A stretch of 63,363 bases of DNA, filler included, from Craspedostauros australis (Eukaryota), in assembly GCA_030167865.1 (NCBI GenBank). It is 7 parts of 7 records of this genome, joined end to end, with 100 filler letters (N's around TTAATTAATTAA, not from the genome) between each part and the next. Parts side by side here need not be neighbours in the genome. Positions count along the whole stretch, not along the records: positions 1 to 9,244 come from JALAGF010005604.1; 6 more parts are not named here. One strand, written 5' to 3'. The notes beneath the pieces are model-generated. The model made no database searches, was not told the DNA's origin, and was given only the letters and a program-made list of their open reading frames with translations. How positions within the stretch are numbered: the stretch's first letter is position 1; each line of letters starts with the position of its first letter. The position numbers and the translations under genes were made by a program. This document shows, in pieces, positions 1,868 through 55,672 of the stretch.

Positions 1868-3502
1868 TTAATCCATTGCAGACCGCAGTTGGATGAAGTG
1901 ATGCTTGTGGTTGTCATAGATCTCCTTTTTGGTGTTCTTTGTGAAGCCGTCTGCGATGTTGTCTTCCGATCGCACGAATTTGGTTACGGCTTCTCCNNNN
2001 NNNNNNNNNNNNNNNNNNNNNNNNNNNNNNNNNNNNNNNNNNNNNNNNNNNNNNNNNNNNNNNNNNNNNNNNNNNNNNNNNNNNNNNNNNNNNNNNNNNN
2101 NNNNNNNNNNNNNNNNNTTGTGCATCTTTAATCCGATGTCGCTCATCAGTTGCGTCACGAAGCGGATTTCTTTCCCTGCTTCTGACAGTGCGACGTACTC
2201 TGCTTCTGTTGAGCTGAGTGTTACGCTGTGTTGTGCTTTTGATCTCCATATGATCGGCACTCCCTGTAGTAGGACGATGTGCCCTCCTACGCTGATGCGA
2301 TTGTCCTTGTCACCCGCGAACTCGCTGTCGGTGAATATTGCAATCTTCCATGCATCGTTAGTCAGTGGACTCGGTTTCATCTTCAGTCCATATTCTCTNN
2401 NNNNNNNNNNNNNNNNNNNNNNNNNNNNNNNNNNNNNNNNNNNNNNNNNNNNNNNNNNNNNNNNNNNNNNNNNNNNNNNNNNNNNNNNNNNNNNNNNNNN
2501 NNNNNNNNNNNNNNNNNNNNNNNNNNNNNNNNNNNNNNNNNNNNNNNNNNNNNNNNNNNNNNNNNNNNNGTCCACCTTGGGTGCATCGCTGTTCCTTTGG
2601 ATGCCCTGCCCTGGTGTTCCTGGTGTTCCGTATCGTTGTAGTTTCAGCACATCGCTCCCAAACGTGTCGATGATGTTCTTGAGGATGTGTGGTTGGTTCA
2701 CCCAACAGTTCGTCTTGTCGTGGTTGAATATGATCTTGCAGCTCAGGTAGTCTTCGAGATCTTCCTCCACTTTGACCCCGAACCGTTCCGCGCGGATATC
2801 TTTCACGAGCTTCTCCAGTTCCTGCTTTTCTCCGATGCAGAGACAATCGTCCACATAGGTGCCGATTAAAAGCAGTTGCCCTTCCTGATTCCNNNNNNNN
2901 AGGCATGGGTCTACCTCACTCTGTCTGAACCCCAATTTGAATAGGATGTCGACGAGCTTCTTATTCCATTGTCTGGCACTCTGCACGAGTCCGTAGATGG
3001 TTTTCTTGAGCAGCAGGCATTCATCTGTTTCGTGTTTCATGCCTTTCGGGCATTGCATATAGATCTCTTCGTCGAGGTCTCCATGCAAGAATGCTGTCTC
3101 AAAGTTGATGATGATGCTGTCTAGCTTCAGTATCATTTTCATAGTGAGCATGATACGGTAGGTTGCATCATGTATCACCGGTGCGTGGTGCGCTGAGAAG
3201 TCGACTCCTGCGATNNNNNNNNNNNNNNNNNNNNNNNNNNNNNNNNNNNNNNNNNNNNNNNNNNNNNNNNNNNNNNNNNNNNNNNNNNNNNNNCACCGCC
3301 GATTCCTCGGCATCCGGTCCTTCTTGATCTTTTCCCATACTTTCCTTCTGGCCATATCGTAGAATTCCTTGTTGATGGCTTCGCGCCATTTCTTTCTCTT
3401 ACTGGGGTCCGCGTGGTCCCAGCAGTCCTCGAATGTGGTTGGATCCAGCAGCATAGCGATGCTCGCTAGTTCCATCCCATCCTCATTCTGTTCGTTGTTC
3501 AA
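1868..3502 (-). CDS. Copia A pol: reverse transcriptase + RNase H (fragment of the polyprotein)
   Basis: RVT_2-type motifs FETAFLHGDLDEEIYM, LLKKTIYGLVQSARQW, YVDD; RNase H motif SSTEAEYVALSE. Confidence 0.93.
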   Translation of the reverse strand: MNNEQNEDGMELASIAMLLDPTTFEDCWDHADPSKRKKWREAINKEFYDMARRKVWEKIKKDRMPRNRRXXXXXXXXXXXXXXXXXXXXXXXXXXXIAGVDFSAHHAPVIHDATYRIMLTMKMILKLDSIIINFETAFLHGDLDEEIYMQCPKGMKHETDECLLLKKTIYGLVQSARQWNKKLVDILFKLGFRQSEVDPCXXXXNQEGQLLLIGTYVDDCLCIGEKQELEKLVKDIRAERFGVKVEEDLEDYLSCKIIFNHDKTNCWVNQPHILKNIIDTFGSDVLKLQRYGTPGTPGQGIQRNSDAPKVDXXXXXXXXXXXXXXXXXXXXXXXXXXXXXXXXXXXXXXXXXXXXXXXXXXXXXXXXXREYGLKMKPSPLTNDAWKIAIFTDSEFAGDKDNRISVGGHIVLLQGVPIIWRSKAQHSVTLSSTEAEYVALSEAGKEIRFVTQLMSDIGLKMHXXXXXXXXXXXXXXXXXXXXXXXXXXXXXXXXXXXXXXXXXGEAVTKFVRSEDNIADGFTKNTKKEIYDNHKHHFIQLRSAMD

Positions 3503-4215
3503 TGCTTGGTCCGCAGTGATGATATCGTCGNNNNNNNNNNNNNNNNNNNNNNNNNNNNNNNNNNNNNNNNNNNNNNNNNNNNNNNNNNNNNNNNNNNNNN
3601 NNNNNNNNNNNNNNNNNNNNNNNNNNNNNNNNNNNNNNNNNNNNNNNNNNNNNNNNNNNNNNNNNNNNNNNACCCTTCGTCTGTATTTGGTTCTGACTCA
3701 TCGCTCGATTCGAGGTCTCGCTCCTCCTCTGGGATGGGTTCTTTGTTGTACCCTGTGAGAGCACTCACCATCCTCGGTACGCGTTGCACAGGTTCTGCGA
3801 TAGGGGTCTGCTCCGGCTCACGTTTGGCCTCTTCATTAGCTCTCCCCTCATCGTCCCTTCCGAATTCGTCGCCGTCATTATCGTTCGACTCATTTTTCCC
3901 TTGGGTGGGGAGCAAGTCANNNNNNNNNNNNNNNNNNNNNNNNNNNNNNNNNNNNNNNNNNNNNNNNNNNNNNNNNNNNNNNNNNNNNGGCTCTGCTGCT
4001 GCGATCTGCGTCGTCGGTCTCCATTCCTTTGATGGTCTCCGATCGTCGCTCCCAAGCTGCTCTCGTGTGTCGGGTCTTCATACCCGATGTAGAGTCGTCA
4101 TCTTCCAGATCTATTAGTATTGATCTGTTGGCATTCTCGATACCTCTGAATTGCCCATATGACTGATTCATCCATGTCACGTCTCTCGTGATTAGGATCT
4201 TAGTTGTTGCGAGGT

Positions 4216-6657
4216 TCAGCATTCGATANNNNNNNNNNNNNNNNNNNNNNNNNNNNNNNNNNNNNNNNNNNNNNNNNNNNNNNNNNNNNNNNNNNNNNNN
4301 NNNNNNNNNNNNNNNNNNNNNNNNNNNNNNNNNNNNNNNNNNNNNNNNNNNNNNNNNNNNNNNNGTTGGGATCCGGTTGTTGAACAGCACGCATGCTGGT
4401 TCTCTCGTTTTCGTCCCGATGATATTCTCCAGTTGGGTAGCAGTTCTGGTCGCCTCGGCCCATAATTTTCCTCGGACATTTTTCGGCAGGTGCGTGTGAT
4501 TGAGCATGGCTCGGACTTTCCCGTACAACGTGGCNNNNNNNNNNNNNNNNNNNNNNNNNNNNNNNNNNNNNNNNNNNNNNNNNNGCGTAACCCATCCACG
4601 TAAGTTGGGATCCGGTTGTTGAACAGCACGCATGCTGGTTCTCTCGTTTTCGTCCCGATGATATTCTCTAGTTGGGTAGCGGTTCTGGCCGCCTCGGCCC
4701 ACAATTTTCCTTGGGCATTTTTCGGCAGGTGCGTCTGGTTGAGCATGGCTCGGACTTTCCCGTACAACGTGGAGAATTTTCTTTCCACGCGACCGTTCTG
4801 TTGCGGNGTNGATGCCGCAGTGTACTCGAACGTTGGACCGAACCCTGCGACGAGCAGTTGCTTCTCCGCNGAATAATTTTCTCCTGCGTTGTCACATCTG
4901 ATAATTTTCACTCGTGTTTGCTGATTGGCGTGGAGCCACTTAAGCAACAGAATCATTTTTGTTCCAACCTCACTCTTCTCCTTCAAGAAATAGCTCCAGC
5001 AGTAGTCACTGTAATCATCGAGGACTAGGAGCCAATATTTTCCTTGTCCGTAGCTGTGTGACTGGACACTTGATGTGTCAATGAACAGTCGATCACCAAC
5101 CCCCTTCGCTCGTGATTGGAGTTTCTTCGTCATGGCCTTCTGCCTTTGTTTGCCAATGGCACAGTCCACACATNNNNNNNNTTTGCCTGTGACGTTCCAA
5201 CCGTATCGTCCCGCTGTGCGAGAGATCGTGTAAGTGTCAACATGGCCTAACATTTTATGGATTTGGTTGATGTCCACCGCGGTCTGGGTGGACACGCCAA
5301 CATTGGCTTGGTCGTGGGAGTGTGGGGCGGTGGTCATGTTAACACCGCTCACGAACCCACTGTGGGTAGCCATAAGCCGGTCAAACGTGATACGTTGTCC
5401 GCGCTTCTCCAGGCTCATCACAACACCGCGGTTGCTGATGTTGAAGCCGCTCTCAAGCGCTTTGTTGATGCTGAGGAGGTTCACCCACAAATTGGGCACG
5501 AACTTCACGTGCTTGAGGAGGATGGTTGCGGTGGTACCGTTNNNNNNNNNNNNNNNNNNNNGCTTGTCGCCCACCTTTGTTGCCTTGATGTAGCGACCGC
5601 TGCCGATCTTGATGGAGTGGTCGGCCACGCGCACGTTGGTCATCCCCTCGTCGTTGTTGGTCAGGTGGCACGAGGCACCTGAGTCACCCAACCAAGTGTT
5701 TGCCTCATGGCGGTCTGGGGCGAGCGTGATGCGGCGTTCTTCGACGCNNNNNNNNNNNNNNNNNNNNNNNNNNNNNNNNNNNNNNNNNNNNNNNNNNATC
5801 ACCATTGCCATGTCTGGTTGCGGGTTTCTCTCGCTGTAGATGGGGAGTTCAGGGAACGCGTTTGGGCTGCGAACTCCGTAGAGGCCTGGGTGGTACTTCC
5901 ACATGACTTGGAGTGCTCCACGCGAGGCCAGGCTCCCGATGAGTCCATGGTGGATGGCTGGCAGCTGCTCCTTCTCCAGCCTTTCGTTGATGAACGGCAT
6001 GTTCTTCATGACGTTGAACGGAGTCATCATCCCAATTTCGCGTAGGAGGAAGTAGAGGGTGCGAGCATCCGCGCAAGTGCGTCTGTCTCTCGAGTTGTAC
6101 TCCTCCACTGTGTCGAGGCACAGCAAGGCAAGCTCGGANCGCACNCTGTCAGCCGGCATGGCGTTGCTCAATGAGTATCGCACTGCGAGTGCGAGGGACT
6201 CCTCCTTTGCGAGCATTGCGCGGCGTTCATCGCGTTCTTCGTGGGCCGTTGGTTTCACCACGTCCGTTCCTTCCGGTAGATCAATGAGGAATGGCTGGGC
6301 TGGACAATCGACGCAGTACGAGTAGATGTACCCTTGCTTGAAGCACAATGGGCACGATGCCCATCCTTGGTACATTGCGCGCCCTGCTGCTTCGATCGTC
6401 TTCTCGATGGGAGACTTGTTGGTGGAGAGCGAGAAGACAGGCTCTCTGCAGATGTCTTCCGCTCCGATCACCATTGCCACTTCGTTGGTGGTTTCCTCTT
6501 CGGTGCTGACGAGGTCTTCATCGTAGATGACCTCGTCGAAGAACCCGTCGTCGTCGGTGGACTCGTCTTCGGACGGGAAGAGTTCGCGGTTGATGCGCTC
6601 GGCTGCGACCGCTGGTGGTCCGTAGTGACCATACACCCCTGGGTGGTGGGCCGCCCG
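4216..6657 (-). CDS. Copia A pol: extra Zn-ribbon domain + aspartic protease + integrase (fragment)
   Basis: CPLC-x9-CVDC domain, then DSGA protease, HHCC and DDE integrase core. The first codons of the ORF track (6658-6708) are LTR-derived. Confidence 0.9.
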   Translation of the reverse strand, partial: RAAHHPGVYGHYGPPAVAAERINRELFPSEDESTDDDGFFDEVIYDEDLVSTEEETTNEVAMVIGAEDICREPVFSLSTNKSPIEKTIEAAGRAMYQGWASCPLCFKQGYIYSYCVDCPAQPFLIDLPEGTDVVKPTAHEERDERRAMLAKEESLALAVRYSLSNAMPADXVXSELALLCLDTVEEYNSRDRRTCADARTLYFLLREIGMMTPFNVMKNMPFINERLEKEQLPAIHHGLIGSLASRGALQVMWKYHPGLYGVRSPNAFPELPIYSERNPQPDMAMVXXXXXXXXXXXXXXXXXXVEERRITLAPDRHEANTWLGDSGASCHLTNNDEGMTNVRVADHSIKIGSGRYIKATKVGDKXXXXXXXNGTTATILLKHVKFVPNLWVNLLSINKALESGFNISNRGVVMSLEKRGQRITFDRLMATHSGFVSGVNMTTAPHSHDQANVGVSTQTAVDINQIHKMLGHVDTYTISRTAGRYGWNVTGKXXXCVDCAIGKQRQKAMTKKLQSRAKGVGDRLFIDTSSVQSHSYGQGKYWLLVLDDYSDYCWSYFLKEKSEVGTKMILLLKWLHANQQTRVKIIRCDNAGENYXAEKQLLVAGFGPTFEYTAAXXPQQNGRVERKFSTLYGKVRAMLNQTHLPKNAQGKLWAEAARTATQLENIIGTKTREPACVLFNNRIPTYVDGLRXXXXXXXXXXXXXXXXXPRCTGKSEPCSITRTCRKMSEENYGPRRPELLPNWRISSGRKRENQHACCSTTGSQXXXXXXXXXXXXXXXXXXXXXXXXXXXXXXXXXXXXXXXXXXXXXXIEC

Positions 6658-7684
6658 TGTCGAGATGTACATGTGAGTATATGTCGAGATGTACAAGTAT
6701 ATGTGCATCGTTCACCCGCTATTCTGTCATACGCACTTGGACGGTATAACTACATTCGTGTCGATAGTATGCTGTCATTCGTCAGAATTACAGGGGAAAC
6801 GGAACACACGAAAAGGGGCAAGATTTCTGGAGGAAATTTGCAAATGACGATTTCTGAGAGAATTNNNNNNNNNNNNNNNNNNNNNNNNNNNNNNNNNNNN
6901 NNNNNNNNNNNNNNNNNNNNNNNNNNNNNNNNNNNNNNNNNNNNNNNNNNNNNNNNNNNNNNNNNNNNNNNNNNNTGACATCTGGAGAGCAGAAGGACGC
7001 CTACTGACGTCAACAGGATGTCATCATGTCACCACGTCGACATCTGTCTCCAAGTCAGAGCAGAAGGTGAAGATCCGATGACCGAAGGGCATCAGCNNNN
7101 NNNNNNNNNNNNNNNNNNNNNNNNNNNNNNNNNNNNNNNNNNNNNNTTCCCAACTAAACCTCAGATGACGATATCATCTGACAGACTCCTGCATCACCAA
7201 TGGAACATGACATCTGGAGAGCAGAAGGACACCTACTGACGTCGACAGGATGTCATCATGTCAACCACGTCGACATCTGTCTCCAAGTCAGAGCAGAAGG
7301 AGAAGATCCAATGACCGAAAGGCATCAACATCTTGGATACAGAAGGTGAACTTCAAATGGCGAGTACTCATGGAGTAGGAGCCAGTACTGAATGAACGGA
7401 GTGTCGAATATGGAGTACGTATCGAACACGGAGTATCGTGTGCGACGAGCACGCGATGTTGAGAGAGAGAGAATACAGAAGAGGAGCGAGAGAGCATCTC
7501 GCGTACCGACTCATAGTCGGAGACTGAATCTACGAAACAGATTGAAGCGCCGAGAGCATCGGGCAAGAGAACGGGCGTACACCGAGAGCATCGGAGTAGC
7601 CGAGTAATGAAATAGCAAACGAACGACTATCAACCAACACCATCTTCCACGATCGTAGGTTACCGTGCGCGGAACTTGCCAACA
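6658..7684 (+). mobile_element. LTR, copy 1 of a three-copy family
   Basis: Termini TGTCGAGATG...GAACTTGCCAACA. Homology with 9345-10062 and with the reverse complement of 58515-59363 ends at the same boundaries. Confidence 0.85.
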
Positions 7685-8692
7685 TACACTGTCCTGCACA
7701 CCAAGACAGAGAAGGGATGCGCGGCATTCATCGTGGAGGCGCATGAGCCGAACGGCCATGACGCTTACCAGGCGCTCATACGCAACTATGAGTCCGTCGA
7801 CCACAAAGCTGAGGCCATCGCGGAGGAAGAACAGAAGATCGCCAAGCTCCGTTATGACGGATCAGAGCCCTTCCCAGTCTTCGTCAATGATTTCTCCAAA
7901 TGCATCCGTGTCATGGAGCAGAACGGAAAGCAGATGACCGACCAGCAAAAGATCGCGAAGTTCTTTCGCAACATCACGGACGATCGCTTCACAAGCGAGA
8001 TGTCCAGATTCCGCAACACGGAACAATCCTTCAACACAATCCGCGAGGCGTTCATGCAACATGACGCGCTCCTCACGAAGTCGGAAGGACACTACTCTCC
8101 CAAGCGCAACCGTCGCTACCAGCAGAAGGACAACAAGGACGATCGCAAGAGGCCACGCGAATCTTCCAAGTGGGATCGCAAGGGCGCCGCATCGTTTCGG
8201 TTGCCGGACTCCGTCTTCCGTCGCATGCCGGTGAGCACTCAAGTGCTCCTCGTCGAAGCGTCTCGTCACTTCCGCACCACCAGGAAACCCATTGATGAGG
8301 AAACCCTCAAGCGCAACAAGCCAGCAGACTATGCGCGCAACCTCGAGTTGCCACTGACCCAGCGAGGGCCCAAGCGGCCTCGCACGGGCGATCACAAGAC
8401 CGGACGACCCGGCACCNNNNNNNNNNNNNNNNNNNNNNNNNNNNNNNNNNNNNNNNNNNNNNNNNNCCGTCGCATGCCGGTGAGCACTCAAGTGCTCCTC
8501 GTCGAAGCGTCTCGTCACTTCCGCACCACCGGGAAACCCATTGATGAGGAAACCCTCAAGCGCAACAAGCCAGCAGACTATGCGCGCAACCTCGAGTTGC
8601 CACTGACCCAGCGAGGGCCCAAGCGNNNNNNNNNNNNNNNNCACAAGACCGGACGACCCGGCACCCAAGGACCATGGAACGCCGGTTCTTGA
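7685..8692 (+). CDS. Copia C Gag (5'-truncated by the LTR), ending in an in-frame UGA
   Basis: Gag/UBN2-like segment NGHDAYQALIRNYES..IAKLRYDG..FVNDFSKC and a basic C-terminus; followed in frame by the protease. Confidence 0.75.
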   Translation, partial: YTVLHTKTEKGCAAFIVEAHEPNGHDAYQALIRNYESVDHKAEAIAEEEQKIAKLRYDGSEPFPVFVNDFSKCIRVMEQNGKQMTDQQKIAKFFRNITDDRFTSEMSRFRNTEQSFNTIREAFMQHDALLTKSEGHYSPKRNRRYQQKDNKDDRKRPRESSKWDRKGAASFRLPDSVFRRMPVSTQVLLVEASRHFRTTRKPIDEETLKRNKPADYARNLELPLTQRGPKRPRTGDHKTGRPGTXXXXXXXXXXXXXXXXXRRMPVSTQVLLVEASRHFRTTGKPIDEETLKRNKPADYARNLELPLTQRGPKXXXXXXHKTGRPGTQGPWNAGS

Positions 8693-8733
8693 CAATCAAA
8701 GACGGGCACAACTCGCCGTCAGTCGGAGATTGT
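8690..8733 (+). promoter_or_regulatory. Candidate stop-codon readthrough signal (UGA-CAAUCA, 8-nt spacer, stem or pseudoknot)
   Basis: TGA 8690-8692, CAATCA 8693-8698, stem GACGG 8701-8705 / CCGTC 8716-8720. Loop ACAACTC can pair with GAG(A)TTGT at 8726-8733. Confidence 0.6.
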
Positions 8734-9244
8734 CATCCACCTCAAATCCCGCGACTGTAGGGGGGCGAGCGTGACGACCGCAGCGGGAATGCCCGGACGT
8801 GCACGTCCGGTGGCACCACAAGAGTCTCGTCCATGTACAACCCACCCGACAGTGGAGCATTGCATCCGAAGGGCAAGAGTAACGACGAATAGCCAAGGCT
8901 TTATCATCCTAGACTCAGGGGCGGACGGAGACATCGTTCATGCGTCGGGCTGGGAGGTGACCCACACACACCAACAAGAGTTTCGTGCCCGAGGGGCGAC
9001 GATCAACTCACCAATCGAGACATTCCAGATGGTCGACGCNNNNNNNNNNNNNNNNNNNNNNNNNNNNNNNNNNNNNNNNNNNNNNNNNNNNTACGTGGCT
9101 CTCGACAAGCATCCACAGCAGACGGAATCACTGTTTAACACACATCATATGCGCGCGTCAGGACTGAACGTCTACGATCGCCTAATTGAACATCAGGGAC
9201 AGCAGCGGGTCTCATCGGACGACATCAGCATACCACTGGAGAAC
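8693..9244 (+). CDS. Copia C pol N-terminus: aspartic protease (runs off the contig end)
   Basis: The frame is open from the codon after the Gag UGA and contains the protease active-site motif IILDSGADGDIV. Confidence 0.8.
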
Positions 9245-9344
9245 NNNNNNNNNNNNNNNNNNNNNNNNNNNNNNNNNNNNNNNNNNNNTTAATTAATTAA
9301 NNNNNNNNNNNNNNNNNNNNNNNNNNNNNNNNNNNNNNNNNNNN
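9245..9344. other. Artificial contig spacer
   Basis: 44N + TTAATTAATTAA (stops in all six frames) + 44N. Confidence 0.97.
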
Positions 9345-10062
9345 AACTACATTCGTGTCAATAGTATGCTGTGATTTGTCAGAATTACAGTGGAAATGGA
9401 ACACACGAAAATGAGCAGAATGTCTGGAGGAAATTTGCAATCGACGATTTCTGAGAGAATTGGAAATATCGTCCGTCCATCCATCAATGGAGATGTATGG
9501 TACCAAGAGAATCTTGAGGTACTTCCCAACTTAACCTCAGATGACGATATCATCTGACAGACTACTGCATCACCAATGGAACGTGACATCTGGAGAGCAG
9601 AAGGACGCCTACTGACGTNNNNNNNNNNNNNNNNNNNNNNNNNNTCGACATCTGTCTCCAAGTCAGAGCAGGAGGCAAAGATCCGATGACCGAAGGGCAT
9701 CAAGATCATGGATATGGGAGATGAACTTCAAATGGTAAGTACTCATGGAGTAGGAACCAGTACTGAATGAATGGAGTGTCGAATGCGGAGTACGCATCGA
9801 ACACGGAGCATGGTGTAGCACAAAGCACATAATGCTGAGACAGAAAGAGAGAGAACAAATAGCAGCAAGAGAGCATCTCGCACACCGACTCATAGTTGGA
9901 GACTGAATCTACAAAACAGATTGAAGCACCGAGAGCATCAGGCAAGAGAACGAACAGACATCAAGAGGATTGGAGTGCCAACGTAATGAAATAGCAAACG
10001 AACGACTATCAACCAATACCATCTTCCACGATCGTAGGCTTCCGTGAGCGGAACTTGCCAAC
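9345..10062 (+). mobile_element. LTR, copy 2 (partial, starts at the contig edge)
   Basis: High similarity to 6748-7683; homology stops at GGAACTTGCCAAC. Confidence 0.85.
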
Positions 10063-12559
10063 GTGCATGCTCAGCTCTCTTCTGGATATGCTTTTCTGGA
10101 ATCTCTTGGTTGGGTAAACTGTGGATTCTCTGGTTGGGTCAAGTGGTGTGCTGGATGCTCCTCCTTCTCTCTCTCTTGTAAATCATCACTGCCAATTCAC
10201 TACTGCTTGCCAAATGACATCTGGCAAGGATCACTGCTGATGCATTGATAGCTGGAGGTGGCAGAATACTCTGATCAATGCTCAGCCGTGCGTGAAGTTG
10301 TTGGGTGTGATCAGAAGCTCTCCAGCTGCTGTCTGGAGCCGCCCACTCATTGTTGATCGTTNNNNNNNNNNNNNNNNNNNNNNNNNNNNNNNNNNNNNNN
10401 NNNNNNNNNNNNNNNNNNNNNNNNNNNNNNNNNNNNNNNNNNNNNNNNNNNNNNNNNNNNNNNNNNNNNNNNNNNNNNNNNNNNNNNNNNNNNNNNNNNN
10501 NNNNNNNNNNNNNNNNNNNNNNNNNNNNNNNNNNNNNNNNNNNNNNNNNNNNNNNNNNNNNNNNNNNNNNNNNNNNNNNNNNNNNNNNNNNNNNNNNNNN
10601 NNNNNNNNNNNNNNNNNNNNNNNNNNNNNNNNNNNNNNNNNNNNNNNNNNNNNNNNNNNNNNNNNNNNNNNNNNNNNNNNNNNNNNNNNNNNNNNNNNNN
10701 NNNNNNNNNNNNNNNNNNNNNNNNNNNNNNNNNNNNNNNNNNNNNNNNNNNNNNNNNNNNNNNNNNNNNNNNNNNNNNNNNNNNNNNNNNNNNNNNNNNN
10801 NNNNNNNNNNNNNNNNNNNNNNNNNNNNNNNNNNNNNNNNNNNNNNNNNNNNNNNNNNNNNNNNNNNNNNNNNNNNNNNNNNNNNNNNNNNNNNNNNNNN
10901 NNNNNNNNNNNNNNNNNNNNNNNNNNNNNNNNNNNNNNNNNNNNNNNNNNNNNNNNNNNNNNNNNNNNNNNNNNNNNNNNNNNNNNNNNNNNNNNNNNNN
11001 NNNNNNNNNNNNNNNNNNNNTGGTGCACTGCACATCTGTGACAGACAGGAGGTTCTGCAATGAATGACAACTCTGTTGCTTTGCTACAGTGAGGAAATGT
11101 GTGATGGATCCCATCAGGTTGTCCATACAGCTGGGACAGTCTTTGTTTGGTGTGATATGAGACAGGATGGAGCATCCCCCAGGTGTCGATACTATCTATC
11201 TCTAGAGGCACATTGGCATGGCNNNNNNNNNNNNNNNNNNNNNNNNNNNNNNNNNNNNNNNNNNNNNNNNNNNNNNNNNNNNNNNNNNNNNNNNNNNNNN
11301 NNNNNNNNNNNNNNNNNNNNNNNNNNNNNNNNNNNNNNNNNNNNNNNNNNNNNNNNNNNNNNNNNNNNNNNNNNNNCTTCTTCCACTCTCGATCCCACTT
11401 CCACATGAGCTACATACTTGCTCTGCAGATGAAGTTGACTTGGAAGGAAGGGAGGGAGGAGGTAGCGTCAATTGGCAGTGTTGTCAACAAGTTTCTGAAT
11501 GAGTTGAGTTGAGAGTTGAGCATGGATTGCCACACAAGAAACCAACGCTCCTCCTCGTTGCCAACAACACGAATAGACCACAGATCAAAGTACTCAAGTT
11601 TTGGCATTATCGTCCTTATTTTTTAACAGTGTGCATTGTTTTGACAGAAATAAACAAGAAGAGACAAGAATCATGCGATGATTCGCGTACAGGAGATACA
11701 AAAAGAGAGAGATTTGGACAATCGAATCAATCATTTTGGTTCAGATTGGGCAAAAATGCGAAAAACAATGTTGGTACCATGAGGAAACAAACAGTTTGAC
11801 GAAACAGTGTGGGAAAAAGGGAAGGAAGAAAGCGAATCGTGACGTCACATGGGCATTGCAAAGACCTAAATCCCCACGAAAGTGGCTGTCTCCATTGCGT
11901 CCAGACAAGTTTCAATAGCGGGGCTCCCCCTGGAATTCGGACAGCCCGGCGTGTCCCAGTACCCAACTTCTGGGGCCACTCGAACCCCTCTATTGTCAGT
12001 CGACAGCAACCGCCTGTCTCCATTTCTGACAACCGTCATGCTTTCCTGTCTTGTCCCTGCGGAGAGGGCAGCAATGTCAGTATCATGCGATACCAACGGG
12101 ATCTTGTTGGGGCATCACTTTTCTTCGAGTGCAACGGAGCATCCAGAACAGCAACGAGAAGAGTTGACCGGTAGTACTTGCGCTTCTACTTTTACTTTTA
12201 CCCTTCGTTTGCGCCATAGGTCGTACACCTGCTAGTATACTATGCACCAAGGACAAGAGTATACTGCCTCATGATGGCGTGGCACGAGTACCTGCGGGAC
12301 CAACTCTACAGCATGGCCTTTCATGGCAGGAACTGCGCAGGTAAGTCTGCACGTAATAGCACAACAGATCTATTCTTCTCGTACTCCACTACTTCTGCGC
12401 ATTGCCCTGCTCTACCTACCGCGCGTCGAACGTACACACGGCAATACGGACTCATTCGCGCGATCTCCGTGCAACGTGGCCATGGCGAACATCACATTCA
12501 CTATGATGCTCCCATGATCCACGATCGTGGGGTGTTCAAACAAGCCACGATTAGCGTGT

Positions 12560-15500
12560 TCAGCCTGTCTCGTCATCAGCGCCATCACCACCACAGTCGT
12601 CGTCACCACGATCCGTCAGCACTTCTGACACCAGATGAAACACGAGGCGGTGCGTGCCATCCGCATCCTTCCGCACCCGGCCTTCACCGGAGAATTGGAT
12701 CGTATCACCCTCCCGCAACACGCGCTCGTCCTTGTCGTCCAGCAGCAGCTTCGCGAGGCTGCCGTGCACCTGCGACTTGCGTTGCTGGGACATCTTTCGG
12801 TTGCGCTTGCTGCGCTGCGGGGACACCAGGTGCAACATCCCGTCCTTGCGTGCGCGTGGTGCCAGCGCTGGGAGGATGCCCTTGTACTCGCTGTTCGGGT
12901 TGCTGTGCGAGATGGGGAGTTCACCTGACGAGCGTGGTGTTCGTAGTGTTCGTGATGATGGTGAAATGGAATGCTGCTGCTGATTATGATGGCTGCGCCT
13001 CCCGTGATCCGATGAACCCAAGCTGCCGCCAACGCTGCCGCTGCTGTGAAGATTGGTGTGCCGCTGCCTCTGATTGCGAGTGGATACGGACGAGTTGTCG
13101 ATTGAAGAGGAGGCTCCGACGGATGCGGTGGTGATGGACGGTCCAGTATGTTCAGATTCGTCCAGGTTGCCGATCGCAGCCTTCGCATTCAGGATGGCCA
13201 AGCGCTCCAGCTTCTTGCAACGCCGCTTCCGTGTCGGAGGTGATATCAACGAGGTGATATCCGTGGACTTGCTGTGGTTGTATTGCTTCGGACCATGAAA
13301 GTCCGCGACGCTGGACGGCCTGCGGTTGCCAGGAGACAACGAATGATCCACGGAGGCGGTCGAAGTCGCTGTCGTATGGATCGAATGCTGCAGGCCCAGA
13401 TCGTTCAACGAAGACAAGTGCCTTTGATTGCTTTTTGACGCGTGCGACCCTGCGGTTTCGTAGGAACCCACGCTGGCACCTGCAGATGGCTGCAACGATC
13501 CCGTTCGCTCTCTTCGCTTGTGATGGCCCGATGACGAATGGCGGCTGCGCGATTTGGATGATCTGTGGCGACGACGATGCCGTCCACCACCGGTGCTGTG
13601 AGACCTTACCGACTTGATATCATCGTCGTCGGAGACTGGCGGCCGTTCCTTCGAGGGACGGCGACGTGTGTTGAGCGATTGGTTGCTCGAGCTCCTCTTG
13701 CGTGCATCTCGGTTGATGGAGAGAGAAGAGCTTGGACGGCCTGCGGAGTGGACTGAGCCAAGAAGTTCTGCGTCCACATCGACGTCGACGTCAACGTCAC
13801 CCTTGCCGTCCTCGTTCACAGAGCTATCGTTGCGCGGAAGGCTCGGATCTCGGACGCTGCTGGTATCGCCACTGTTCTCAACTTTGCTGTGCCGTCTGGA
13901 TCTGGAGGAGAGTCGTGTGGAGACGGGGCTCTTCGGCGGATGTAGCTTCGCCGTCAACATCGATGCTGCTGATGCCGCCGCCGTACTTGTAGGCGTCGCT
14001 ACTGATGAGTGGTCGTGCTCACTTGATCCATGCTCGTCCCGTTTAGGTTCCAGAGACATGGACCGCAGTTGCGTCACTGTTGGATACGGCTTCGATGACG
14101 TGCTGCGATTGTCGACGGAATGCGTGGAGCGAATGGAATGGCGGCTGATGCTGTTGCCCGGCGGGTCGATCTTACCCTTCGAACGCGACTTTCGATGCCG
14201 CGATCGCGTGCTGCGTCTGGATCGATGGCTGCCCTCGTCACCATCGTCGTCCTTCGAACGGCCTCTGTGGTCCTTGCTGCTGCTTCTCCGCTTGGACTTC
14301 TTCGATCGTTTGGACTTGACCGATTTGGACACGGATTTCAGATCTGATTCCAAGTCCGCCTTGGGCGTGGCCGTTGTTTCAAACTTCGGCTTGGCTGCAA
14401 TCGCGGATTTGGACACCACATGATCGGATTTAGAGAGTATGGATGTGGAAAGGATGGATGCGAGGTTGTTCCTGACGGACGACCTGGTGGTGGCGTTGGA
14501 ATGCACGGAGAGCCGCAAGGAATCGTTGTGTTGGCTGCGTGGCACGCTGCCGGTGCTGCGACGGCTGCGGCGACTACGGGCATCGTCGGTGGAACGTCTG
14601 CGCCTGCGGCGCGTGGAGGTGGAGTCAGGTGACTTGGATCTGCGCTTGTCATCTTCTGTCGAGGCGGCCGGGGTCTGGAGATGCGTCGTGTTGCTGCTTC
14701 CTGCGCTCATGTTGAAGGGCAGATCTGGGAAGTCCATCTCGGGGAAGGCAGGGTCGTGCTTGAGCTTGCGACGACGGCCGCTCGACGAGGCAGTGTTGGG
14801 TGTTGACATGGATGTCGGATGTGACAGAGGTGGTGGCGGGATTGACGGCACGGACGTCGACCCGTGAGACGAGAACGAGACCCGTTCGGTGGGTGCTGTC
14901 AACGGGTGTTTGGCGTTGGCGTTGACGCGGTTGCCAGCGACGCTGGAACTGCCGGATGCTTGTCTGGGTGGCTTTGACTGGCTTTCTCTGTCTGCGATCG
15001 GTTCTGACGTAGCAGACAAGCGCGATGAGGCTGATACTGATGCCGATTCGTATGCCGAGGTTGATGTGGAAGCGGATGTTGATGAGTTTGCTGGAACGAT
15101 CCCCAACCGTTTCAACCCAACAGGCGATCTCAAGAGGGCATAGTCCGACCGTGCATGTGGCTGCACGAAGGTTGAGAAGGAGGGTTCCGCTTTGAGGATA
15201 AATCCGTCCCTGGATGCTGTCGTTTTCCCCTTGGAGCCATCATCATCGTCCGACTCTATCGCGATCGCTGCTATCGCCGATGCGAACATGGTTGGCGGCA
15301 ATGACAGCGATCGCGATGGCCCCACGTCAGGATGCGGCTGTTTTGTTGTTTCTGCTTCTTTTTCTGCCGCTGCTGCCTGTGTGTCATCTGTGAAAGGTGA
15401 TGCGTGTCCAATGTTAGTTCTGGAGAGGACCAACGAGGTGCTTCTACCTTTGGCGAAGCGAGCATTTTGCCCGTTGTTCTCCTTCTTTTCTTCTTCACCT

Positions 15501-16888
15501 TCATCATCTGTCCATGAGCAATCTGAATCTGTTTCGCCATGGGGTGTATCCTCTTGTGAGCGTTCATGCTGCAGCTGTTGTTGTTGCTGTTGTTGCTGTT
15601 GTTGCTGCTGTTTTTGGTACCACTGCGTCGCCTGCTGCGCATCGCTCTGCACGCCATCTGCCTGAGGTTCTTGCGTGGTCACGGACGTCGTTGCATTGTG
15701 TGTGTTGGTTGAGCCTGGTGCCTCCACCGGTTCCATAGAAATGAGAGGAGGTGAAAGAACAGCAACGTTGGTCAATGCATGACCATTGGGTAGTTGCGAG
15801 TCTGAAGTCTCCGAAGGACTCATGCTCACGCCATTGCTCGCGGTGGATACATTCCGCTTGGCTTTGTGAGACGGCGAGAGCACCAACCGGTTCTTGATCT
15901 TCTTGCGACTGCTGACAGAGTTGGGAGAGAATGACACGAGAGACGGCATGGACATGGCATCAGATTTGTACGTGCAAACGGAAGCCGCATCCTGCTGAAG
16001 CTTCTCTCGCAACGATGCTGGGCGACGTCCGGCAGAACCAACGGGACTCTGATCAGGCGAGGATGATGTCGGTGATGGAAAGAGCGGCGAGAAGTTGGCA
16101 TCCCAGTTCAGATCGGCCTCGCTGTCTTCCTGTATGGTTTCAGTCATTGTATGCATTGCATTGATTGTGTCGGATGTATTGCCTGTATTGCCTGTATTGC
16201 CTGCATTGGCTGTATTGGTAGCGTCTGCTTTGGAACCTCTGTTGCGCTGTCTCGTTCGGCTGCTTGTTGTACCGGATCTGGACTTCGATCTGGCTTTGCT
16301 TGCAGATTTGGCATTGGATTGGTTGCTGGATTGGTTGCTGGATTGGTTGCTGGATTGATTGTCATCGGACTGGGGCCATGCCCAGCCATCGGGAGTGCTC
16401 CATTCATCATCCTTGCCAACCTTCTGCTGCTGTTGATGCTGTTGATGATGATGATTGTCGGCAAAGTCGCCAAACGCAGGGGCATCCTCATGAAGCGGTT
16501 TCCGAAAGAAATCTGCTGGTGCGTTGTCTGTTGTGGAGGGTGATGTCGACAACGACGTCGACGTGGATGCTCTGCCTCGTCTGCTGCGAGAGGATGAAGG
16601 GGCTCTGCCTGCATCTGGGTCCACCAACGGCATCGAAAAGGAAGATGCAGACGAAGCCGAGGATGATGCTGTGGTGGACGCAGATTCGGTTGGCGTCGCT
16701 CTGTGCGATTCGAGCGCCGCCGACAGACGCTGCTTGTTGCTCAACCTTCGCTGCGCTGCTCCCGTGCTGTTGTTGGTGGCATTGCCACTATCATTGCCAC
16801 TCTCGGTGTCTGCTGCTGTTGATGCAGAAGCTGATGCTGACGATCCTCTGGTCTTCTTCGACTTGCTCTTCGTGTTCTTTGGCTTCAT
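12560..16888 (-). CDS. Large low-complexity Ser/Arg/Gln-rich, probably disordered protein of unknown function
   Basis: Uninterrupted ~1440-codon ORF from the ATG at 16888; polyQ, NQSS repeats and RS-rich tracts; no domain recognised. Confidence 0.8.
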   Translation of the reverse strand: MKPKNTKSKSKKTRGSSASASASTAADTESGNDSGNATNNSTGAAQRRLSNKQRLSAALESHRATPTESASTTASSSASSASSFSMPLVDPDAGRAPSSSRSRRGRASTSTSLSTSPSTTDNAPADFFRKPLHEDAPAFGDFADNHHHQQHQQQQKVGKDDEWSTPDGWAWPQSDDNQSSNQSSNQSSNQSNAKSASKARSKSRSGTTSSRTRQRNRGSKADATNTANAGNTGNTGNTSDTINAMHTMTETIQEDSEADLNWDANFSPLFPSPTSSSPDQSPVGSAGRRPASLREKLQQDAASVCTYKSDAMSMPSLVSFSPNSVSSRKKIKNRLVLSPSHKAKRNVSTASNGVSMSPSETSDSQLPNGHALTNVAVLSPPLISMEPVEAPGSTNTHNATTSVTTQEPQADGVQSDAQQATQWYQKQQQQQQQQQQQQLQHERSQEDTPHGETDSDCSWTDDEGEEEKKENNGQNARFAKGRSTSLVLSRTNIGHASPFTDDTQAAAAEKEAETTKQPHPDVGPSRSLSLPPTMFASAIAAIAIESDDDDGSKGKTTASRDGFILKAEPSFSTFVQPHARSDYALLRSPVGLKRLGIVPANSSTSASTSTSAYESASVSASSRLSATSEPIADRESQSKPPRQASGSSSVAGNRVNANAKHPLTAPTERVSFSSHGSTSVPSIPPPPLSHPTSMSTPNTASSSGRRRKLKHDPAFPEMDFPDLPFNMSAGSSNTTHLQTPAASTEDDKRRSKSPDSTSTRRRRRRSTDDARSRRSRRSTGSVPRSQHNDSLRLSVHSNATTRSSVRNNLASILSTSILSKSDHVVSKSAIAAKPKFETTATPKADLESDLKSVSKSVKSKRSKKSKRRSSSKDHRGRSKDDDGDEGSHRSRRSTRSRHRKSRSKGKIDPPGNSISRHSIRSTHSVDNRSTSSKPYPTVTQLRSMSLEPKRDEHGSSEHDHSSVATPTSTAAASAASMLTAKLHPPKSPVSTRLSSRSRRHSKVENSGDTSSVRDPSLPRNDSSVNEDGKGDVDVDVDVDAELLGSVHSAGRPSSSLSINRDARKRSSSNQSLNTRRRPSKERPPVSDDDDIKSVRSHSTGGGRHRRRHRSSKSRSRHSSSGHHKRRERTGSLQPSAGASVGSYETAGSHASKSNQRHLSSLNDLGLQHSIHTTATSTASVDHSLSPGNRRPSSVADFHGPKQYNHSKSTDITSLISPPTRKRRCKKLERLAILNAKAAIGNLDESEHTGPSITTASVGASSSIDNSSVSTRNQRQRHTNLHSSGSVGGSLGSSDHGRRSHHNQQQHSISPSSRTLRTPRSSGELPISHSNPNSEYKGILPALAPRARKDGMLHLVSPQRSKRNRKMSQQRKSQVHGSLAKLLLDDKDERVLREGDTIQFSGEGRVRKDADGTHRLVFHLVSEVLTDRGDDDCGGDGADDETG

Positions 16889-18326
16889 GATGATTGACAA
16901 TGATGATTGACAATGATGTCCGCCTTGGCTCTGCTCGTATTGTTTGTGTACTCGCAGTGCTCTAGGACGATCTATTGTATGATATTATACAATATATCAT
17001 ACAATATAGGGCGTACTCTTGCAACTATTATGATATACAATGGAATACGAGTAGAGAGACGAGGCTTGGGACAAGCTTCGCGCCAAACCAAGCAGCGCTC
17101 CCTCTTCTTCAGCCAATGAGCAGTTGGAGCACTCCGCTCCTATCAGCACGAATAGTGGTGCTCGTGTAAGAGCGCACTCGCGGAGCCTTTGGACTGGTGG
17201 ATGGGGAGGTTGTGCCTATGGGCATCAAGTTGGTTCATCAGACTCCCTGCCAATACATGTATGTACGAGCTGCCCAGTCGCTTTCTCCTCTCTCCCAGCA
17301 CCAATAGTCCTGCCTTGGCTTCTCCTGTGCAGTTGCTCCGCGCATTCTGCCCATCATTCAGCCACGCAAAGCTGCTCCGTCCTCTTCTTGGTGGCCTCCC
17401 TCATTTTCGCCGCACCGAACACGCACACGCACAAAACATGGCGACGACACAAACTATCGCGCGCAGCTGTTCGCCCACACGACACAACGCGAAACCACGT
17501 GATCATTCCGGACGAACGTCGATCCTGGGACATATTCTCACTCCTCCAAAACGTGTCTCATGCGACATGACAAAGAGACAAGTTCGGAGCACCGCAATTA
17601 TCAACACTTGTTCATACGACATTTCCAACAAGCCGCACGAATGCCACACAATTCATCCCTCCGCCTTTCATCGACTACATGGACTTTGATGCAATCGATA
17701 CATGGGAATGGTTGAAGCGGGAATGGATGATACTACTCAATCTAATCTAGTTTTACATTTACAAACAGAATCGCAGGAGTATCGTCCGTTCGTCCGTTCG
17801 TTCGTCTGTTCATTCGCCAGGGAGACACAAGGAGATTTTGCGTGAACCGCCACAGTACCTCGAACGAACAACCAAACGACCATGTTCGTACTAGTACGTG
17901 CGTCTCCCAGAAGCGACACCGCGCAGAACCAACCCAAACCCGTGGAACACCACAACCGTGGGGCACAGTGTCCGTGACACAAGAGCAGCCTTGGGTTTGT
18001 GTGGCAGCGGCAGCGATTGCGCACCAAAACAAGTGCTCGCATCATCTGTGCCGCGCGGCTCAAACGGAGTGGCGCAGAGTGGAGTGAATGCAAGTGGAAC
18101 GCAACAGGACGGAATTCAGAGCACGAGCAGCCCGTATGGGACAGCCCTGCCTCCGAGCAATGCGGTGTTGCGTAAAGATGTGCTTGGTGCAAGTATTACG
18201 TGTAATTGTATAGAATAGAATAGTTTGGTGTGGTGGCGCCAAAATGGATCTTTTCTTCGTTGAGTGAAATGATTCCGTTCCTGGCGAGTTGGCGGTGAAG
18301 TGGGGAAGGCACCGCACTGAGTCCCT

Positions 18327-22071: not shown

Positions 22072-23874
22072 TTAGCCATCCTGACGAATCTGACCAAAGA
22101 GTTCCAACCCGGAACCGTGCATGCAGGGTGCGATATCCCTGGGAACGGAACTGCGTGGGATGGAAGAAATCCGGAAGAAGCGGAAGAATCCTTCGTCGTC
22201 CGTGTCTTCCGTTGTTGGTGCAGCAGCAGCATTTGGGCCGTGTCGATGCTGCAGGTACACCTGTTTGCTGCTGGCGCCGATATCGCTGGCGCTGGTGTCG
22301 TCATCATCAGACACTTCGTTCTCGTCGCCATTGCTGTTGCTGTTGTGGTTGCTGGTGGGGGTCTTCATTTTTGCCGTTTCGCTCCGGCGAAAATTAGCCG
22401 GATCGATTGGAAATGTTTGCCTCGTTCGCTCCAATAGATCCTGTGCGAACAGCACCATGTCTTCCTCCTTGACGATCGTCGAATCCAGCAGCTCTGCCAA
22501 TCCAGACGACGAGCCCTCGATGGATTCCTTCACGATGTCCATGTTGATGGGAGAGGATCGGCGGGATTCGTGAAGCAGGGTCCATGCGATCCCATCCTTG
22601 CTTGCGAGGAAGTCCCACGACTCCATGCCACATGGGCAGTTGATGCCGCTGTGACGCAAGGAGTAATGCGATGGCCTCACCTTGATGCCCGCAGGCAGCT
22701 CCAGCGTGACGTAGAATTGGCTCATCCCCTGATCGGTGATGCGGCCGTCGTAAAGGCAGCAGCTGAAGACGTCTGCCGTGTACGGAACGCTGATTTCGTA
22801 CCCCTCGCTCTCCGGTTCTTGCGCGATTCGATCTTGCTCAATCTCAATCAAGCCATTGCCGTCGTTGTCGTGATTCTCATCACTGCTGCTGTCGGCATCG
22901 CGGTCGATGTTATCAGCATGGTGGTTTTGATGTTCGCCATTGTCATCATCATCATCATGATTGCCATCCTCTTCCACCTCGCTTTCATCGATATCATCAA
23001 TAATTACAGCGCCGTCATCTCCCTCTGCATCATGATCATGATCATTGACATCGTCGTCGTGAATGGCAAAGATGTGACCGATGGCATCATTCCTTCGATT
23101 CGACGAATTGGCGCGGGAACGCCGACGGTTGCGACGCCGTCTCTGTCTTCGTTGGGATGATACACGAGTAGAGGATGATGGTGGATGCATTCGCGTTCTC
23201 TTGCGTCTCGTCTTGGCCTTGAGCTGGCAGAACATCGGGCGGTATGCAACGAAGTTGGCGCGTGCTTTGTCCGTCCCAGAAATCAGGTCCTGCTCCGACC
23301 AATGTCGTGACTCGGATTGTCCCGGATCCGTGGATCGGTAGACGCGCACCAATCCGCGGTGGAAAGGGTTGTTGTAAGCTTCCTCCTTGCCAAAGTTGGT
23401 GCCGACATGATGCAAGATCCCTTTGCCGTCGGAGCGGAAGGGGAATTCGGTGGTGCTGCAAATGAGCCTTGTGGTGCGAAGCATGTACTGAAGGTGCGCG
23501 AGACAGTAAAAGTCGGCCTCCTTCTCCAAGCAATCCCAGAGCTCCGCTTTGCCAGGCGTGAAAGGCAGCAGCTCCCTCGGAAGCTCGGTTTGCTGATCTC
23601 GCAGGAACTGCAGGATGAAAGGGAAGTAGCGAGGATTGCGATCGATGAAGAAGGTCGGGATCGCGTTGGGCTTCTGGCATGTTTGGCATTCGGCTTCGTT
23701 GCTGCCGCTTGCACCGCAGAGACCGGTCTCGCCAAGCTGCCCTCCAGGGTGAAAGCCGGATGAGAAACGGGCATCAAAATACGATCCCTTGGCTGTCGTG
23801 AGCGTGCAGAGGCTGCAATAGAACGGCGTTCCGCCTACATTCAGACAAATGACTTCATCCCCTCGCATGGTCAT
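22072..23874 (-). CDS. KCTD-type BTB/POZ protein with a C-terminal discoidin/F5-8-like domain
   Basis: ICLNVGGTPF..FIDRNPRYFPFILQFLR..EADFY at the N-terminus; PSHYSLRH..WDFLASKDGIAWTLL..FRFFRI..GLELFG at the C-terminus. Confidence 0.85.
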   Translation of the reverse strand: MTMRGDEVICLNVGGTPFYCSLCTLTTAKGSYFDARFSSGFHPGGQLGETGLCGASGSNEAECQTCQKPNAIPTFFIDRNPRYFPFILQFLRDQQTELPRELLPFTPGKAELWDCLEKEADFYCLAHLQYMLRTTRLICSTTEFPFRSDGKGILHHVGTNFGKEEAYNNPFHRGLVRVYRSTDPGQSESRHWSEQDLISGTDKARANFVAYRPMFCQLKAKTRRKRTRMHPPSSSTRVSSQRRQRRRRNRRRSRANSSNRRNDAIGHIFAIHDDDVNDHDHDAEGDDGAVIIDDIDESEVEEDGNHDDDDDNGEHQNHHADNIDRDADSSSDENHDNDGNGLIEIEQDRIAQEPESEGYEISVPYTADVFSCCLYDGRITDQGMSQFYVTLELPAGIKVRPSHYSLRHSGINCPCGMESWDFLASKDGIAWTLLHESRRSSPINMDIVKESIEGSSSGLAELLDSTIVKEEDMVLFAQDLLERTRQTFPIDPANFRRSETAKMKTPTSNHNSNSNGDENEVSDDDDTSASDIGASSKQVYLQHRHGPNAAAAPTTEDTDDEGFFRFFRISSIPRSSVPRDIAPCMHGSGLELFGQIRQDG

Positions 23875-24125
23875 TCGACTTTTGGAGCTTGTGGATTTGT
23901 TAGATTGTTGGCTTGTTGGCTTGATCGGTGTGGGTGCAATGATGGGCGTGCTTTCCTAAACTGGTGGTTGATGTCTTTATCGATGTCTGTGCTTTCTGTT
24001 CTTTTGTGTGTGAGTGTATGTACGCGTATGTGTGCGAGTATGTCTGCGTGTGATGCTTGCATGCGATTGCGCTCTTGAGTTTTGCTTCTTGCTGTGTTTA
24101 TGGTTCAACAGGCCACGCAGCACTG

Positions 24126-24225
24126 NNNNNNNNNNNNNNNNNNNNNNNNNNNNNNNNNNNNNNNNNNNNTTAATTAATTAANNNNNNNNNNNNNNNNNNN
24201 NNNNNNNNNNNNNNNNNNNNNNNNN
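24126..24225. other. Artificial contig spacer
   Basis: 44N + TTAATTAATTAA + 44N. Confidence 0.97.
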
Positions 24226-24309: not shown

Positions 24310-24393
24310 AGTTTCGGAATTCCGACAAACCAAACCAAAGAAAAATAAAAACTAATTAATACCCACACACAACACAAACAACAGCAAAGCAAA

Positions 24394-33143: not shown

Positions 33144-33243
33144 NNNNNNNNNNNNNNNNNNNNNNNNNNNNNNNNNNNNNNNNNNNNTTAATTAATTAAN
33201 NNNNNNNNNNNNNNNNNNNNNNNNNNNNNNNNNNNNNNNNNNN
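33144..33243. other. Artificial contig spacer
   Basis: 44N + TTAATTAATTAA + 44N. Confidence 0.97.
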
Positions 33244-38600: not shown

Positions 38601-39778
38601 TGGTGAGGCTTGCGTCGTAGTAGGAATCTTGTCCTTGGTTGGAGTTGCTCATCTTGTTGTTGACGTTGTATGGTCTCAAAGAAAGAATGGGAGATGTGTC
38701 AGTCTGTTCGACGATGGCTGCAAAGGCGACGTCCTCCATTACCTTGGAGTCAGCTTGGTAGTTGCTGTTGTTGTCGCGTGTTTTCACCTCGCCTGTGTTC
38801 ATAGACAAGTTGGTCACATTTTCCGATTCGTTCGTGTTTCCCGAGGTGGGCACACAAATTAATTCGTCTGTCATCACAAGAGCTACGTCGTTATTTCCCT
38901 CCATCCCATCAGTTGCCACATTAGCCGAGTCTGCCTCTTTCATGGCTGCCTTCAGCTTGAAACACTGTAGGATCTTGTGTCTCTTCTTACCGCAGTACTT
39001 ACACTCCCCATTGAACTTGGGCTTGCTGTTGTTGTCTCCTTCGCCACTCTTCTTGTTCTTGCCGTTGCCTTTCTTGGGGGCGGAGCGACAGTCTGCCTTC
39101 TTGTGGCCGTAGGCGCCACAGTTGCGGCAGTGACCTTTGAAGCCTCCTACTGCAGCGAATGCAGTCTCTTCCCTGTTGCTGGTGCTCTCACGTCTGTTGC
39201 CGCCGAGCTTGAGGTGTCGCCCGTCGTAGGTGGCGCTGACAGCCTCGCGGATGTCTTCGAGGGTCATGGTGTCCTCCATACCGTCGAACTTGAGCTCCAA
39301 GAGCTTGACGTCCGTCTCGTATTCCCTTCCGAGGGCGTTGAGTTCGAGCATGTGGTACTGTTGCATATCCATCTTGATGCCAGTACTACCGAGGCGATTA
39401 CGCAGCACTTCCATCTCAGTTAAGAACGTGTCTGGGTGCTCACCTTTCTTCAACCGCATCCCGTTGAGTTGAGCCAACAACTTTGCCTTGACAGGCGCAG
39501 TACGCTGCTCGTAGATGCGTTCAAGGGCCTTCCACGCCTTGCGTGGGTCTCCACTNTCAGTGGGTCCNCCCTTGGTTCCCACCACAGCCATGAAGGCGAC
39601 ATCGCCTTCCGTAGTTTCATGGTTGATCGCCATGGTCAGTTCTTCAAACGCGCACTTGGCCAGCCCATTCTTGTATACCTCCTTCTCCTCAGCGGTCATC
39701 GAGGCTATCTTCTTCGCGATAGACTCACCCTCTTCGATCTTCACATCGGAGATGAGGGCGCTGGGGCCGAAGGGAGCT
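35680..39778 (-). CDS. Copia B Gag, extra domain, protease and integrase (single frame)
   Basis: CRNCGAYGHKKADC and CKYCGKKRHKILQC knuckles; CPLC-x9-CVEC; WLGDSGASCH; HHCC; DDE. The split from the RT ORF falls at a gap-flanked duplication. Confidence 0.93.
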
Positions 39779-39878
39779 NNNNNNNNNNNNNNNNNNNNNN
39801 NNNNNNNNNNNNNNNNNNNNNNTTAATTAATTAANNNNNNNNNNNNNNNNNNNNNNNNNNNNNNNNNNNNNNNNNNNN
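39779..39878. other. Artificial contig spacer
   Basis: 44N + TTAATTAATTAA + 44N. Confidence 0.97.
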
Positions 39879-55572: not shown

Positions 55573-55672
55573 NNNNNNNNNNNNNNNNNNNNNNNNNNNN
55601 NNNNNNNNNNNNNNNNTTAATTAATTAANNNNNNNNNNNNNNNNNNNNNNNNNNNNNNNNNNNNNNNNNNNN
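55573..55672. other. Artificial contig spacer
   Basis: 44N + TTAATTAATTAA + 44N. Confidence 0.97.

Follow-up and report, generated by a model that had tools for sequence, protein, structure and literature searches.

A UGA codon in a CARYYA context between gag and protease of a copia-type retrotransposon fragment from Craspedostauros australis: a candidate readthrough site

When a single stop codon separates gag from protease in a retrotransposon, and the same reading frame continues behind it, is the stop a leaky terminator that the element uses, or is it damage in one dead copy? The question is raised by a fragment of a putative Ty1/copia-type retrotransposon of Craspedostauros australis (GenBank assembly GCA_030167865.1). 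The fragment lies in a stretch of DNA of 63,363 nucleotides, called the window here, which is made of seven separate contigs chained end to end by artificial linkers. An earlier note on this DNA had proposed that a TGA codon at the end of gag is read through at a signal combining two known classes, and that this sets the ratio of Gag to Pol.

The description of the frame in that note was confirmed. Gag ends at TGA 8690–8692 and the same frame goes on into the protease; past the TGA there is no stop and no N through the LDSGAD motif (8909–8926) to the end of the contig at 9244. The remaining two frames are closed within about 25 codons of the stop. Apart from the TGA, the gag and protease frame of about 1.3 kb has no further stop or frameshift.

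Directly after the stop comes CAATCA (8693–8698), which, also as described earlier, fits CARYYA, the type I readthrough context. CARYYA is a fair test set in advance, because the motif is defined in the literature. Across the window it is found at 279 of 119404 hexamer positions (0.23%), and it stands directly after 5 of the 2195 TGA triplets. Within the long open reading frames (ORFs) of the window it is in frame in 72 of 21071 codon pairs (0.34%). The focal frame has 474 codon pairs and only one in-frame CARYYA, which lies directly after its only stop – the probability that a random nonsense change or base-call error in this frame would land on it is about 0.2%. The CARYYA match after the TGA is real and notable, and it is unlikely by chance (about 1 in 400).

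The sequence behind the stop belongs to a recognisable family. A HMMER search of 1.84 billion representative proteins gave 15 matches at E = 0.001 or better, all 24–48% identical, with protease homology at E = 3.8e-15 to the protein labelled P0003. P0003, P0006, P0007 and P0011 are fused gag-protease-integrase ORFs with no stop, 24–33% identical to the focal fragment. P0007 also has a reverse transcriptase (protease match 514–619, RVT_2 1350–1551). The domain order protease, integrase, RVT_2-type reverse transcriptase is seen in P0007 alone; the focal contig ends inside the protease. On the gag side, residues 186–334 of P0005 align to 7685–8128 (HMMER search, E = 2.6e-10). P0005 is a gag-only protein that ends within the linker region that holds the focal stop; it carries PF14223, and the relative P0003 also matches PF14223 (Retrotran_gag_2). 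Neither the focal gag nor the focal protease has a direct Pfam match. A model of the protease of a further relative, P0009, is of low confidence (pLDDT 64), and its best fold matches are retroviral proteases (XMRV, HIV-1, FIV and MPMV) at only E = 0.2; these matches would be consistent with a retropepsin-like protease but are not proof of one. The focal fragment appears to belong to a divergent Ty1/copia-type lineage, because its relatives carry RVT_2 and Retrotran_gag_2 (PF14223) and one has a predicted retroviral-protease-like fold.

In the alignment of the linker between gag and protease, a basic stretch, RR, begins some 9 codons behind the TGA. A motif of the form hydrophobic-x-V/I-x-L-K-S follows about 14 codons past the TGA and is in frame in all seven relatives. 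The downstream frame keeps the order of the motifs – the RR stretch, then hydrophobic-x-V/I-x-L-K-S, then D-S/T/P-G. Because the linker motifs are shared in frame, the stop breaks a coding sequence that runs on uninterrupted in the relatives, while past the stop the frame is still family-like.

It is proposed that TGA 8690 is a leaky gag terminator, driven by CARYYA, in a divergent Ty1/copia-type element; this explanation is given an even chance of being correct. Most ribosomes would terminate at TGA 8690 and release Gag, while in a small fraction a near-cognate tRNA would be accepted at the UGA and translation would pass in the same frame into the protease and the rest of Pol, leaving Gag in excess over Gag-Pol. 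The 3' hexanucleotide CAA-UCA, as a CARYYA (type I) context, would be the main stimulator. A hairpin 8 nt downstream may add to readthrough, and a pseudoknot is possible, as the weakest part of the model. It may be inferred that working members of the family also have the stop, that ribosomes read through it and that the structure contributes. CARYYA works with all three stops (Skuzeski 1991, as cited in PMC3542737). According to Firth and Brierley 2012 (PMC3542737), it stimulates readthrough of UGA and of UAA as well; a UGA so placed should therefore leak in a eukaryote, however it arose.

The structural elements behind the stop are present as the earlier note gave them: a stem of 5 bp, GACGG/CCGTC, beginning exactly 8 nt past the stop, and a loop, ACAACTC, that can pair with GAGATTGT at 8726–8733 with one bulged A. 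The spacer (8693–8700, CAAUCAAA) is 8 nt long, begins with C and has purines at 5 of its 8 positions. All types of readthrough site commonly have a structure that begins some 8 nt downstream of the stop (PMC3542737). The candidate second stem has 7 pairs and a duplex energy of -5.7 kcal/mol, and the possible pseudoknot would have stems of 5 bp and 7 bp (the latter with the bulge) and loops of 2, 1 and 5 nt. Among 4000 random window positions, 3.2% have a hairpin that begins 6–9 nt downstream and reaches -6.0 kcal/mol or better. For the pseudoknot, the score used was a heuristic, the sum of hairpin and loop duplex; values of -11.7 or better were reached at 7.1% of these 4000 positions and at 5.0% of 1121 positions in the same element. 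An H-type pseudoknot geometry is possible, and a score this good is reached at 5–7% of positions. A rate of 0.04% for the pseudoknot is obtained only under a definition fitted after the fact, and is not quotable alone.

In ViennaRNA folding over 48 nt the hairpin is in the minimum-energy fold (z = -1.17; 26 of 200 shuffled sequences fold as well or better); over 108 nt it is absent from the minimum-energy fold (z = -0.33). Rfam on 8642–9039 gave nothing relevant, only one chance-level match (E = 5.6). The 3' arm of the second stem falls within the codons of the conserved motif EIVIHLKS, and its sequence is already constrained by protein coding, because these codons encode a conserved peptide motif. 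As predicted from the sequence, the pseudoknot seems only marginally better than chance, and is weaker evidence than CARYYA. A composite terminator – UGA, CARYYA and a hairpin or pseudoknot at 8 nt, with both parts contributing – that sets Gag:Pol and evolved in a copia lineage of a microbial eukaryote from fused gag-pol ancestors is an unlikely proposal. If it is true, no type I readthrough signal would have been known before from a gag-pol junction of a long terminal repeat (LTR) retrotransposon. A type I motif joined to a structure downstream of the stop, as the earlier note had inferred for this element, has a precedent in the benyvirus type I site UAG-CAA-UUA, listed with a compact stem-loop (PMC3542737).

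Further copies of the junction were sought in several collections. In the window, blastn and tblastn found no second copy except an artefactual duplicate. Protein word-index searches found no relative, either with gag and protease together among longer proteins or with gag by itself among those of its own size, and P0005 in such a search matched itself only. There was no relative in a scan of viral contigs, nor in prokaryote genome contigs searched with a single-protein query, and the ESM Atlas returned unnamed clusters only. A scan of metagenomes gave two distant loci, L001 and L002. L002 is decayed, with many stops. L001 is intact, with gag and protease in one uninterrupted frame, and is the only unbiased observation on the stop, because protein databases cannot contain in-frame stops. 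Like P0003, P0006, P0007 and P0011, it has the gag core, linker motifs and protease of the focal element, at 24–33% identity, and has no stop between gag and protease. For the claim that readthrough sets Gag:Pol, the UGA between gag and protease with CARYYA and a stem at 8 nt stands on one side, and the fused frame of L001 on the other. The UGA-CARYYA gag terminator, a hypothesis and not a result, stands on one fragmentary copy.

The TGA may instead be private to this copy – an error in base calling, or a nonsense mutation (such as CGA to TGA) in a dead fragment, with its context coincidental. This is a serious possibility, rated somewhat short of even. Six CGA codons in the focal frame make such a change available, and 3.75% of the single substitutions in that frame create a stop. 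The element is fragmentary, with a gag that is cut 5' and has no ATG, and it is bounded by a repeat on one side and by the contig end at 9244 on the other; it is also the only copy found across the collections searched. The draft assembly is of low quality: it has numerous runs of N, isolated N calls and overlaps left unmerged, and a run of 16 N lies 49 nt upstream of TGA 8690. Base quality around the stop is not assured, because this N run is nearby and because two sub-contigs disagree, where they overlap, at 1 of about 183 bases. Gag and pol are fused in the relatives, including the one unbiased locus, and in-frame gag/pol stops are described as very rare in copia (Amyotte et al. 2012, PMC3441728). 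Natural CARYYA sites mostly have UAG (PMC3542737). The RNA structure is within 3–7% of chance, and both fold z-scores are non-significant. The position of the stop alone carries little weight, because the linker holding it makes up about 40% of the fragment. These points favour a private TGA or weigh against a leaky terminator.

A private TGA would, however, have to hit the sole in-frame CARYYA of the frame, and it would also have to fall 8 nt before a hairpin of a kind found at about 3% of positions. The long frame free of other stops and frameshifts does not suit a dead fragment, and neither does its base composition: CpG observed/expected is 1.12 and TpG 0.97, so that CpG is not depleted and there is no sign of methylation-driven (deamination) decay.

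Set beside known systems, the focal stop has parts in common with several of them. CAATCA, immediately behind the stop, matches the CARYYA of the type I (tobamovirus) signal, UAG-CAR-YYA. In nature, type I sites are known mostly from plant RNA viruses and have UAG, whereas the focal candidate is a UGA in a retrotransposon. In murine leukaemia virus (MuLV, type III), gag and pol are in one frame and an 8-nt spacer precedes a compact pseudoknot; the focal junction is alike in its frame and spacer length, and the pseudoknot there is a possible one. MuLV has UAG and a purine-rich spacer with specific required nucleotides, whereas the focal element has UGA and a spacer that begins with C; the type III arrangement, in which UAG precedes a G or 8 nt rich in purines, is not found at the focal stop. 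The stems of the MuLV pseudoknot are longer than the focal stems of 5 bp and 7 bp, and the focal candidate differs further from it in the bulge of its 7-bp stem and in its marginal energies. SIRE1 of soybean, from the copia lineage, has stop suppression (PMC2194720, PMC2829016), but at a pol-env-like junction.

The elements most like the focal one are Tca2 (pCal) of Candida albicans and VdLTRE5 of Verticillium dahliae, both Ty1/copia elements in which one UGA, in frame, separates gag from pol (PMC2194720; PMC3441728). For VdLTRE5 this organisation was called very rare (Amyotte et al. 2012, PMC3441728). According to that paper, both elements are without CARYYA, whereas the focal element has it, in the one fragmentary copy from which it is known. 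In Tca2 a pseudoknot is predicted 3' of the stop, behind a spacer of 8 nt, comparable to the focal candidate. The earlier note had cited Tca2 as a case of UGA readthrough, but it is not an established one: its gag-UGA-pol junction did not direct readthrough in a yeast reporter and is insufficient for it there (Forbes et al. 2007, PMC2194720). Tca2 is the closest precedent, and its failed junction reporter weighs against readthrough at TGA 8690.

Tca2 also provides the model for another explanation, in which the stop is real and conserved, and Pol is made from an internal promoter, by reinitiation at ATG 8789, or from processed RNA. The junction of Tca2 has a promoter and directs no readthrough itself (Forbes et al. 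2007, PMC2194720), and the focal frame has an ATG between the stop and the DSG motif of the protease (Table 1). Promoter or splice-site evidence was neither sought nor found here, GT...AG around the stop gives an intron of only about 15 nt, and the CARYYA coincidence is left unexplained; this explanation is improbable. That UGA is read as an amino acid, through a variant genetic code or as selenocysteine, can practically be dismissed: nothing beyond the open frame across the TGA favours it, TGA is an ordinary stop in the host because it terminates 6 of 10 further long ORFs inspected in the window, the ankyrin/BTB ORF among them, frames as long as 1990 codons contain no TGA under the standard code, and the Rfam search gave nothing but the chance-level match. 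Frameshifting was rejected, with gag and protease sharing one frame, and so was an intron removing the stop, with no plausible GT...AG pair.

A leaky gag terminator at TGA 8690 would be of interest in several ways. In-frame gag/pol stops are described as very rare in copia, and the two cases found in the literature, Tca2 and VdLTRE5, have no recognised readthrough context (PMC3441728); the mechanism of Tca2 remains unresolved. The Gag:Pol ratio of a retrotransposon would be set by a short signal of plant RNA viruses, a clean and testable example, and a single nonsense change in a permissive context would turn a fused gag-pol gene into a regulated one. No description of a copia gag-pol UGA with CARYYA was found in the literature searched: a search on CARYYA in retrotransposons led to the Verticillium paper only, and a literature search on readthrough in diatom retrotransposons gave nothing on topic, judged by title and abstract. 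For CoDi elements, the diatom copia groups of Maumus et al. 2009 (PMC2806351), with a stop between gag and pol, that paper gives no mechanism.

Table 1. Coordinates of the focal fragment, of the candidate signal at its stop, and of the assembly features of the window
Feature	Position	Strand	Remarks
LTR-resembling repeat, about 0.9 kb	6748–7688		adjoins 5' end of gag fragment
Copia-type gag fragment	7689–8689	+	frame open from 7616; no ATG; N-terminal part missing
Apparent 249-nt tandem duplication in gag	8218–8416 and 8467–8665	+	flanks 50-N gap 8417–8466; assembly artefact
In-frame TGA	8690–8692	+	only stop of that frame between 7616 and 9292
CAATCA, fits CARYYA type I readthrough context	8693–8698	+	directly 3' of TGA
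Linker and N-terminal two-thirds of retropepsin-like protease	8693–9244	+	gag frame; DSG 8912–8920; ends with contig
Hairpin, GACGG 8701–8705 / CCGTC 8716–8720	8701–8720	+	5 Watson-Crick bp, 10-nt loop
Possible second stem of H-type pseudoknot	8708–8733	+	loop ACAACTC 8708–8714 / GAGATTGT 8726–8733
In-frame ATG	8789–8791	+	33 codons past stop, 40 codons before DSG; possible alternative pol start
Identical 100-nt linkers	9245–9344, 24126–24225, 33144–33243, 39779–39878, 55573–55672, 57202–57301		unrelated flanks
50-N gaps with flanking repeat	1691–1740, 4535–4584, 8417–8466, 56238–56287		repeat identity 95–100%
50-N gap with flanking repeat	35711–35760		repeat identity 85–90%

Two kinds of assembly feature recur in the window. 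The first is a 100-nt unit, 44 N followed by TTAATTAATTAA and another 44 N, which is an artificial all-frame-stop linker found in six places with unrelated flanks. Adjacency across such a linker carries no meaning, because the linkers are artificial, their flanks are unrelated and the contigs are separate. It is because of the first of these linkers that the focal contig stops inside the protease. The integrase and reverse transcriptase are missing because they are unassembled, beyond the contig end, and a deletion is not demonstrated. The second feature is a gap of 50 N, found five times including the one in the focal gag. The preceding sequence is repeated across each gap – these are unmerged contig overlaps, and they imitate tandem duplications within ORFs. 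A real tandem duplication in gag was rejected in favour of an unmerged overlap across the 50-N gap, a pattern shared by the four other gaps. The two duplicate copies in gag differ at 1 real base in about 183. Besides the gap at 8417–8466, the gag frame crosses a run of N at 8626–8641.

The LTR-like repeat beside the gag fragment has a second copy at 9345–10067, at the start of the next contig (83–90% identity), and a weaker, reversed copy at 58668–59061 (70% identical). No primer-binding site or ATG was found after the repeat at 7688. An LTR pair for the focal element is not established, because the similarity stops at 7688 and 10067, the flanks differ and there is no primer-binding site; the combination of LTR pair, primer-binding site and target-site duplication that marks Ty1/copia was not found at the focal locus. 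An internally deleted element between two LTRs was considered and rejected, the second copy of the repeat being beyond an artificial linker. A separate piece at 57517–57765 (-) matches residues 1573–1655 of P0007, near its C-terminal end, with 47% identity, which places it in the clade of the focal element. The reversed repeat copy (58668–59061, -) is upstream of this piece, a hint that the repeat may belong to the family of the focal element.

Other transposable elements are found elsewhere in the window. Two related copia elements, at 1868–6708 (-) and 33485–39822 (-), are 50% identical to each other in protein and are of another lineage than the focal element. Both have Pol_BBD, SH3_retrovirus and RVT_2 domains, and the second also has Retrotran_gag_2. 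Gag and protease are in one ORF without a stop in these elements, and the first seems to be without the N-terminal part of gag that is present in the second. An apparently intact LINE-like non-LTR retrotransposon is at 26799–32771 (+), with a frame of 1990 codons encoding an endonuclease/exonuclease/phosphatase domain and RVT_1. Further long open frames, of 885 to 1474 codons, are at 12560–16984 (-), 42670–45582 (+), 46160–49456 (+) and 24349–27006 (+); none of them matches a Pfam family at E = 0.001 or better (for the frame of 1474 codons, at 0.01 or better). Two ORFs are probable host genes – one at 49597–51555 (-), with ankyrin repeats and a weak BTB match, and one at 22072–23955 (-), with a BTB_2 domain.

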